64,000 bases of DNA from Escherichia coli (GTDB lineage: Bacteria > Pseudomonadota > Gammaproteobacteria > Enterobacterales > Enterobacteriaceae). Under the pieces are notes generated by a model. It was not told where the DNA came from. It saw only the letters and a program-made list of their open reading frames with translations, and ran no database searches. Every line of letters begins with the position of its first letter. Position 1 is the stretch's first letter. The stretch is from assembly GCF_013315695.1 (NCBI RefSeq), contig NZ_CP054353.1, one strand, 5' to 3'. The position numbers and the translations under genes are program-made. Positions 58,766-60,061 of this stretch are shown here, in pieces.

Positions 58766-60061
58766 TTACAGCGGATAATGCGCGAAGTACACGGCTTGCT
58801 GGTCATTAATTTTCTTCTCTTGCGCAAACCCTTCTTTAACAATTGTCCGTAAATCAGCTCGAGCCGTATTATCAGAGACGCCCAGGCTCGCGCTAATTTC
58901 AGCAACTGTGTACTCTTTCCCCGGATTGGCGAGCATCACATTCAGGAGCGTTACCTGGCGCGGATTCAGGCGTTTAAGCACACCAGAGCTAAACAGCACA
59001 CTATCGAGTTTTGCGCTTCGTTGTGTAATTTCATCGATATGCTGCTGCCAGTTTTGCAGAGCACGTTTAATGACACCCGCCTGATATTCAAGGAAATAAG
59101 TCAGATCCATACCATCTGATTCAGTGTACTGGTAGCTGGCGGCATATTTGACCGGTGCAGCATGAAGCAAACGGCTGATGGAAATATATTTAAAGACATC
59201 GTAGCCCGATTTCAGCATATACCAGTAAAACAGCGCCCGACTGGTGCGCCCGTTGCCATCCCGAAACGGATGTTCATGGGCCAGCATAAAATGCAGAATG
59301 CAGGCACGGACCAACGGATGAATATACCCTTCATGGCTGTTTAACCACTGGCAAACTTTTTCCAGCCGTTCCGGTAACAATGCCGCAGCGGGCGGTTGAT
59401 GCACTATATTGCCATCATAGTCGGCGATCACAACATCATCTGTTTCACGAAATTCTCCCGGACGATATTTCGCGTCATTGATTCCACCCATACCAATGGC
59501 ATGTAACTGGCGAATAAGCGCAGGTGTCAGCGGTTCTGCGAGTAAGTGCGGAATTTCCGCCATCAGCCGGGCATTTCCCGCAATCATATGCTCGTCTTCA
59601 GTGCGTGGCGACCGCCCTGTTTCCAGCATTTTTCTCGCCACCAGCGTTGTAGTATTCGCACCTTCCAGCTGGGAGCTGGTGATCGGCTCTTCCAGGCGTA
59701 ACTGGCTTAACTCGGCTCCGGCCCCGCGTAACCGTTCAGTCTGATCTTTCAGCGCCAGCGCGGTAGCACGTTTGTCGACAAGCTCGCACGCTTCTGCAAT
59801 CACCGGGGTAATGTTGAATCCGGCCTGTTCACCCGCTTCATTGCAATAATTAATTCGTTGGATCGCCGCGTTGCGCGCCAGACGGGTAAGCGTCCACGCC
59901 ACATCGACGTTTTCTCCTTTTTTGATGCGGTACTGCAACTCATCAAAAGGCAGATAACGTCCTTTTTCATCGGTAACCCGGTTAAAGCGCAGGTGGGCCA
60001 GGAGTTCCTCACCCGATAAGTGTGATAAAGGAATAAGTCCGGGAGGTGATTTGATAGCCAT
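58766..60061 (-). CDS. Fic-domain protein (putative AMPylator/NMP-transferase) with internal inhibitory motif and C-terminal winged-helix DNA-binding domain; accessory relative to K-12
   Basis: 431 aa; Fic active-site motif [12 protein letters not shown]; upstream SSQLEG matches the (S/T)xxxE(G/N) inhibitory-helix motif; C-terminal region resembles an HTH. Confidence 0.85.

Follow-up and report, generated by a model that had tools for sequence, protein, structure and literature searches.

A putatively autorepressed, self-inhibited Fic enzyme with a winged helix between aldB and yiaY of Escherichia coli, apparently ancestral and deleted in K-12

The stretch of Escherichia coli DNA analysed here (contig NZ_CP054353.1; 64,000 nucleotides, hereafter the window) carries, between aldB and yiaY, a gene for a 431-aa Fic protein, which we refer to as fic (58766..60061, minus strand). 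As judged from its sequence, the product is a class II, i.e., self-inhibited, Fic enzyme fused to a domain of the winged helix-turn-helix type (wHTH); class II Fic-wHTH proteins are an established kind, of which it represents a separate, uncharacterised long-form subfamily. Two palindromes in front of the gene, O1 and O2, are most likely operators through which the protein represses its own promoter. Moreover, comparison of genomes indicates that fic is an old gene of the genus, and K-12 appears as the derived state, in which the ancestral gene has been deleted.

The fic coding sequence opens with the first ATG available downstream of the preceding in-frame stop, and its product is deposited as RefSeq WP_000985736.1 ('Fic family protein') in a strain that matches our 1701-bp query at 100%. 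A sequence-only reading of the window had placed a Fic motif and the segment SSQLEG in this open reading frame (ORF), and the translation holds both exactly there. The catalytic motif H264-R275 (59237..59272, minus strand) is complete and belongs to a Fic/Fido domain (Pfam PF02661, residues 177-281, E=1.7e-19); it aligns residue for residue with human FICD, and H-P-F-x-D-G-N-G-R is invariant, as is SSQLEG, across 30 aligned homologues (41-75% identity), so that on proper alignment the motif is not degenerate. SSQLEG (S129-G134; 59660..59677, minus strand) has the form (S/T)xxxE(G/N) that defines class II in the classification of Engel et al. (2012) and stands at the end of a predicted helix (116-132) on the same chain, N-terminal to the Fic core. 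In the alignment with human FICD, its E133-G134 falls on the EG at the start of the stretch EGNTLTLSEIRHILET, an EG which we take to hold the class II inhibitory glutamate, E234. The proposal that SSQLEG is an auto-inhibitory motif is therefore well matched by the FICD and homologue alignments.

At the C-terminus, the domain that the earlier reading had called HTH-like is predicted to be a winged helix (58781..58981, minus strand). Several HTH families weakly match residues 361-414 (HTH_DeoR, E=0.003); among the 30 homologues, 12 show HTH_DeoR at E<=0.001 (25 at E<=0.1) and two show SoFic-like_C (ten at the looser threshold), and HTH_11 matches occur as well. The AlphaFold2 model (predicted local distance difference test, pLDDT, 89; predicted template modelling score, pTM, 0.84) consists of the Fic core, a long helix (321-359) and, at 361-427, a winged helix of the order helix-helix-helix-strand-strand (helices 367-378, 386-393 and 397-409; strands 413-417 and 423-427), the recognition helix of which (397-409) opens with N398-T399-A400-R401. 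Foldseek superposes about 355 columns, covering both Fic and wHTH, on SoFic (3zcn/3eqx), CbFic2 (8cil) and 7xux, the last presumably CccR, as judged from its 380-aa chain. Profile search and structure prediction thus agree on both the Fic fold and the winged helix, to which the operator covariation described below adds a further line of support.

In front of these parts stands a family-specific N-terminal domain (residues 1 to about 85; 59807..60061, minus strand), modelled as three helices and a beta-hairpin with invariant D31, Y36, R45, W56 and R63, for which no match among solved structures was found. A phmmer search with this domain against 1.84 billion representatives returned 32 hits, most of them pieces of proteins from within this family, and a Foldseek search of AFDB50 returned almost exclusively Fic proteins and no independent context. 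A few repeat-rich giant proteins among the 32 hits look spurious. The proteins P0123 (1618 aa) and P0126 (2042 aa) each give 11-16 matches to residues 45-71 of the domain, probably a repeat or low-complexity artefact.

The palindromes O1 and O2 share the same sequence, are 28-34 bp long, lie 50 bp apart between the yiaY terminator and the fic ATG, and bracket the putative promoter. O1, TATCTCAA-N12-TTGAGATA (60067..60094), stops 5 nt short of the ATG; the predicted transcription start, the 5' untranslated region (5'-UTR) and GAGA Shine-Dalgarno-like bases all fall within its reach. O2, AACTATCTCAAAA-N8-TTTTGAGATAGTT (60114..60147), holds the candidate -35 in its promoter-proximal half-site. 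The candidate sigma-70 promoter, read by hand on the minus strand (60096..60124), consists of TTGAGA (60124-60119), 17 nt and TGc-TATACA (60104-60096); it would be of the extended -10 type, with the start point within the left arm of O1. The pattern TCTCAAW-N10-WTTGAGA occurs twice in the 64-kb window, both times directly upstream of fic, with 0.01 occurrences expected by chance. When the 120 nt upstream of the gene were scored at 67 homologous loci, the top palindrome reached 8.8 vs 3.1 in control windows taken from the same loci, and an equivalent palindrome lies 0-3 nt from the start codon of homologues with 37-76% identity. The palindrome of fic itself adjoins the start codon in E. albertii, an Enterobacteriaceae isolate, Pseudescherichia, Salmonella, Glaciecola, Marinomonas, Halopseudomonas and several Pseudomonas, usually with a second copy about 50 bp upstream. 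Across genera, the arms of the palindrome are conserved while its spacers vary; palindromes of another sequence are seen with more distant homologues, among them those of Verrucomicrobia, Actinobacteria and methanogenic Archaea. Furthermore, 33 of 50 non-redundant loci contain their own half-site again beyond the main palindrome, with 1.64 extra copies vs 0.13 in controls.

The class of half-site tracks the residue preceding the invariant T399-A400-R401 of the recognition helix. CTCAA is paired with Asn (N398 in the present protein) in 11 of 11 loci, CTAAT with Gln or Glu in 12 of 12, ATCAA with Ala or Gly in 7 of 7, and CCAAT with Asp or Gln in four loci; the association was reached by 0 of 100000 permutations, in a test that ignores shared ancestry. 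At the level of sequence, the gene has what would be expected of an autoregulator, namely palindromic sites within its own promoter, recurring at its homologous loci. Since the half-site covaries with N398, autorepression is supported, and N398 becomes a candidate specificity residue.

With regard to its history, fic is carried by 1572 of 5426 complete E. coli genomes (about 29%), in every case on the chromosome, in a single copy between aldB and yiaY, and annotated just as 'Fic family protein'. K-12-like genomes have nothing between the two genes, as the sequence-only reading had noted. It had also suggested a comparison of this interval across genomes, which confirms the polymorphism of presence and absence and speaks against an insertion, since the empty sites carry scars. 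The segment missing from K-12-type genomes comprises 1368 bp (58772..60139; junction TTACAG|AGATAG, ambiguous by 1 nt). The junction reads ...GGGTTACAG|AGATAGTTGAAAAAGCGG...; its left side is the reverse complement of the last codon and stop of fic (CTG TAA), and its right side begins within the promoter-distal half-site of O2. In 550 genomes there is a second allele, from which about 58772-60089 is missing and in which an entire O2-like palindrome remains, with AGATAAC in front of it; loss between AGATA repeats could have turned this allele into the K-12 form. Hence, there are at least two deletion alleles, because the empty sites keep CTG-TAA together with either a half-site or the whole O2-like palindrome. 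In E. albertii, fic and aldB are collinear with the window (92.3% nucleotide identity over 3031 nt, both operators included). Between the two species, the synonymous divergence (dS) is 0.34 for fic and 0.39 for aldB, and the ratio of nonsynonymous to synonymous divergence (dN/dS) of fic is 0.068 overall and 0.05-0.09 in each of the three domains. Given the shared synteny, the parity of dS, the low dN/dS and the scars, we conclude that fic is ancestral in Escherichia, vertically inherited, functional and repeatedly lost.

Outside Escherichia, the genome-contig search listed mostly distant homologues, and close enterobacterial contexts were added one by one. In all the genera examined (Salmonella, Klebsiella, Photorhabdus, Pseudescherichia, Rahnella and P. 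syringae) the homologue is a single gene, and in the last three it stands alone among housekeeping genes. The Salmonella homologue has AcaB, DUF3158 and DUF3577 neighbours, a region that we read as resembling an integrative and conjugative element, and the Photorhabdus gene lies beside ParE/Phd and HicAB modules. In Klebsiella (loci L088-L090, gene 6001-7362), a 48%-identical homologue directly follows a DUF927 primase-like gene in a neighbourhood of Bro-N/AntA and tail-fibre genes, which looks like a cargo position of a prophage or P4-like satellite. Such positions often carry defence genes. Homologues were found on 190 plasmid records; among 50,697 phage records there were four weak partial matches, so that the gene is no typical phage moron, in spite of the match to phrog_5978 given below. 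Taken together, the distribution is suggestive of an accessory conflict or defence gene. In P. syringae (loci L091-L093, 7466-8614), the homologue adjoins a gene for an iron-containing alcohol dehydrogenase, the family of yiaY, which is probably a coincidence. Long-form homologues with 31-38% identity also occur, among the matches listed, in the archaea Methanoculleus, Methanoregulaceae, Woesearchaeota, Methanolobus, Argoarchaeum and Methanoperedens (loci L032, L036, L055, L066, L067 and L069), and five of these six loci have upstream palindromes of their own (in Methanoculleus, TATCTATCAG-N11-CTGATAGATA). The self-repressing design hence seems to cross the domains of life.

We propose the following model. 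The inhibitory helix would set E133 into the ATP site of an AMP-transferase centre that is complete in all other respects (H264...R275) and would keep AMPylation low. Dimers of the protein would bind O1 and O2 through the C-terminal winged helix and repress the fic promoter, with O2 overlapping the -35 and O1 overlapping the transcription start and ribosome-binding region. If either brake is released, an essential host protein of the GTPase type would be AMPylated and growth would be arrested, by analogy with the relatives; the likeliest use, on the analogy of EcSofic, would be a protection from phages resembling abortive infection. The PADLOC SoFic profile PDLC03963 matches the protein with E=1.2e-43 (148 bits, residues 96-428, profile positions 30-351 of 361, i.e., 89%), and a match at 8e-54 is given by phrog_5978, a PHROG to which no function is assigned. 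The module would consist of a single gene without a partner: as already stated in the sequence-only reading, no separate antitoxin is evident beside fic (ORFs of at least 20 aa were checked), the small ORFs nearby are out-of-frame overlaps with fic, the gap from the fic stop to the aldB start measures just 107 bp, and the homologues whose neighbourhoods were compared in several genera are adjoined by no conserved partner. The view that fic could act as a toxin-like AMPylator once de-repressed is reasonable in the light of the relatives. We regard the architecture together with autorepression as highly probable. The model as a whole, that is, a self-inhibited and autorepressed AMP-transferase causing growth arrest in phage defence, is in our estimation slightly favoured, and the defence role taken separately, which is drawn from analogy, is plausible and somewhat short of probable.

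Several points weigh against this model. The literature searched held no experiment on the fic protein or its subfamily, and nothing relevant on the aldB-yiaY gene itself. Every characterised relative matches the protein at only 32-49 bits, and it reaches 40.2 bits against the NCBIfam SoFic equivalog NF046030, the cut-off of which is 550; therefore, it does not belong to the orthologues of S. oneidensis SoFic, and neither the target nor the activity of the relatives can safely be ascribed to it. In E. coli, the gene sits between housekeeping genes, outside any defence island, and its absence from about 70% of genomes shows that it is dispensable. DeAMPylation can be the main activity of a class II Fic enzyme, as exemplified by FICD; a deAMPylase mode is reported for CbFic2 (PMC10628234). 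As to the operators, a sigma-70 consensus scan called no site upstream of fic, missing the candidate promoter because its -10 has no T at position 6; the permutation test has the limit given above; and the RNA of O1 is predicted to fold with -9 kcal/mol (z=-2.26).

The last point belongs to an explanation that places the action of the palindromes in the RNA: O2 would be a terminator or attenuator of read-through from yiaY, and O1 would mask the ribosome-binding site as a hairpin in the 5'-UTR. O2 was indeed flagged as terminator-like by a scan (13-bp stem, T-rich tail), and the Shine-Dalgarno-like GAGA lies within the right arm of O1. A hairpin, however, requires complementarity alone, yet it is the sequence of the arms that is conserved while the spacers vary; both palindromes of a locus share one half-site, extra single half-sites occur, and the half-site follows the recognition-helix residue. 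Moreover, the full O1 hairpin would not be transcribed, because the proposed -10 puts the start inside its left arm. The arm conservation, the shared half-site and the covariation argue for putative protein-bound operators rather than mere RNA hairpins, and we consider the RNA explanation quite improbable, bearing in mind that RNA and protein roles of the palindromes are not mutually exclusive. A recent horizontal insertion into the aldB-yiaY interval, as the sequence-only reading had it, would agree with the polymorphism (29% of genomes with fic) and with the mobility of related genes in other genera. It is nevertheless very unlikely: E. albertii has fic at the same site, the dS of fic is close to that of aldB, the empty sites retain CTG-TAA and operator remnants in at least two deletion alleles, and all copies are chromosomal, one per genome.

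A more serious alternative to an AMPylating defence module, which we nonetheless deem unlikely, is that fic encodes mainly a transcription factor. Its wHTH would regulate its own gene and perhaps others, and the Fic domain would be a regulatory or sensor module working by auto-AMPylation or deAMPylation, with no part in phage defence. For such a protein, the operator evidence is strong, whereas toxicity is inferred; CccR changes the expression of other genes (PMC9755527), CbFic2 is reported to switch between AMPylase and deAMPylase on DNA binding (PMC10628234), and the gene is alone among housekeeping genes in E. coli, as it is in Rahnella, Pseudescherichia and P. syringae. On the other hand, the operator motif is found nowhere else in the 64-kb window, all characterised relatives expressed in E. 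coli are toxic via the catalytic histidine, and the patchy distribution, linked to mobile elements, is typical of accessory conflict genes. Very unlikely, too, is an interbacterial effector delivered, like CccR, by a type VI secretion system (T6SS), AMPylating FtsZ of competitors and serving as a regulator in kin cells. The architecture and the putative palindrome-mediated autorepression are as in CccR, 7xux is matched at E=1.5e-11, and an Hcp gene lies about 6 kb from the Rahnella homologue. The match to 7xux, however, amounts to only 47 bits, and no effector-immunity or secretion-type genes were found among the ORFs of 54000-64000 (yiaT-W, aldB, yiaY, selBA), whereas cccR itself adjoins a T6SS effector cluster, a context that fic does not have in E. 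coli. The operator layouts differ as well: CccR has a single pair of 10-bp repeats set 26 bp apart, while fic has two palindromes with 8-bp half-sites and a 12-bp spacer.

Returning to the autorepressed AMP-transferase, one may go further and suppose that the long-form Fic-wHTH proteins (about 430-460 aa) are a distinct single-gene immune or stress switch. The N-terminal domain would sense a phage or stress cue and couple operator release to relief of the E133 brake, and one polypeptide would be sensor, repressor and growth-arresting AMPylase without an antitoxin; we offer this as a speculation with a small chance of being right. If it were true, the pairs of N/Q/A/D before T-A-R and CTCAA/CTAAT/ATCAA/CCAAT would constitute orthogonal, re-programmable repressor-operator pairs.

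As for the surroundings, aldB, starting at 58658 (MTNNPP..., minus strand), is the downstream neighbour of fic, and yiaY (60191-61342, minus strand) is the upstream one. The intrinsic terminator of yiaY (60155..60175, minus strand), a 9-bp GC-rich stem followed by CTTTTTC, was called by a terminator scan directly upstream of O2 and separates fic from yiaY transcription. Between the fic stop and the aldB start, at 58700-58722, we noted a perfect 10-bp inverted repeat, GACTGGCGAA-N3-TTCGCCAGTC, which is also present in K-12-type genomes and is followed by no T-tract on the minus strand; it could be a weak fic terminator or a regulatory site of aldB. In strain CFSAN061771, in which the 1701-bp fic region is 100% identical, homology ends exactly at the 3' end of aldB (about 57119), and a 'type I restriction endonuclease' gene (locus L087, 401-1480) replaces the yiaW side of the window, possibly marking a second, defence-related variable spot flanking aldB. 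Just upstream of yiaT, two large ORFs of 466 and 675 aa (49765-53155, plus strand), which K-12 presumably does not have, may form another accessory segment; a gene at this position in strain 98190 is annotated as glycoside hydrolase family 127. Farther away, three tandem rdlD antitoxin RNAs (Rfam RF01813, 90 bits each) at 220-285, 703-768 and 1186-1251, about 483 bp apart, lead us to read 220-1251 as a triplicated ldr/rdl type I toxin-antitoxin array; K-12 has a single ldrD/rdlD at this locus. The Rfam scan also returned ordinary E. coli features, namely a sok antitoxin RNA of a hok/sok-type locus (22764-22919, minus strand) and the cspA thermoregulator (20609-21036, plus strand).

Nearly one third of sequenced E. 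coli, and E. albertii, thus keep under purifying selection a self-contained, putative Fic enzyme and repressor that research on K-12 could not see, a member of a very widespread subfamily extending from Proteobacteria to Archaea. The locus offers several handles: the coordinates of the putative operators, the candidate promoter, residue N398 and a natural null, K-12, with its 1368-bp scar. If the defence role were true, the 'SoFic' counts in the E. coli defensome would partly represent this chromosomal, vertically inherited gene and not the island-borne EcSofic.

Among the known systems, the best sequence match in the PDB is FICD/HYPE, a metazoan class II protein (E=2.6e-12), whose EG and Fic motif can be aligned position by position with those of the fic product; FICD has tetratricopeptide repeats instead of a wHTH, is anchored in the membrane of the endoplasmic reticulum, targets BiP and does not bind DNA. 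The best structural match is CbFic2 of Coxiella burnetii (CBU_0822, PDB 8CIL; Foldseek E=1.1e-12 over 368 columns, which take in all of CbFic2, 20% identity). It is reported to modify host histone H3, a eukaryotic setting (PMC10628234), and the abstract mentions no sequence-specific operator. SoFic of Shewanella oneidensis (SO_4266/MloA; PDB 3EQX, 3ZCN) resembles the fic product in its inhibitory glutamate, complete Fic motif and C-terminal winged helix; whole SoFic superposes on fic residues of about 75-431 with a template modelling score of 0.67 (SoFic-normalised, 356 columns), at 18% identity and 32 bits (phmmer). SoFic AMPylates EF-Tu and binds as a dimer to the first 100 bp upstream of its own gene, the operator sequence being left undefined in the preprint (bioRxiv 10.64898/2026.07.09.737422).

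CccR of Yersinia pseudotuberculosis (YPK_0951) is likewise a class II protein (S59ARIEG) with a C-terminal HTH; it has 380 aa and the Fic motif HPFGNGNGRTVR. Its autorepression proceeds via inverted repeats, AGATAATCAT-N26-ATGATAATCT, near the -35/-10 and requires dimerisation; CccR AMPylates FtsZ at Thr8, is secreted by a T6SS and is toxic in E. coli via its catalytic histidine (PMC9755527). Under the name SoFic, a stand-alone Fic protein has been reported to be a system of defence against phages (bioRxiv 10.1101/2022.05.11.491447), and EcSofic of E. coli H397 (PDB 9VJC) is described as an anti-phage system, the phage named being T5; it is toxic, needs dimerisation and its C-terminal domain, and is followed by a 47-aa antitoxin, AS1 (PMC12249575). 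Like EcSofic, fic is a single Fic gene, matched as a stand-alone gene by the PADLOC profile for the SoFic defence system (Millman et al. 2022). The two proteins share 34.5 bits, and EcSofic is shorter (358-residue chain, catalytic histidine at 194); no AS1-like gene of about 47 aa was found downstream of fic, and the downstream neighbours differ in every genus examined. None of SoFic, CccR and EcSofic has the N-terminal domain of about 60-85 residues. Since class II auto-inhibition and wHTH autorepression are already established in these relatives, the conceptual gain is incremental; what the fic gene of E. coli would add to them are operators predicted in silico, a candidate recognition residue, an N-terminal domain without a structural match and a history of deletion.

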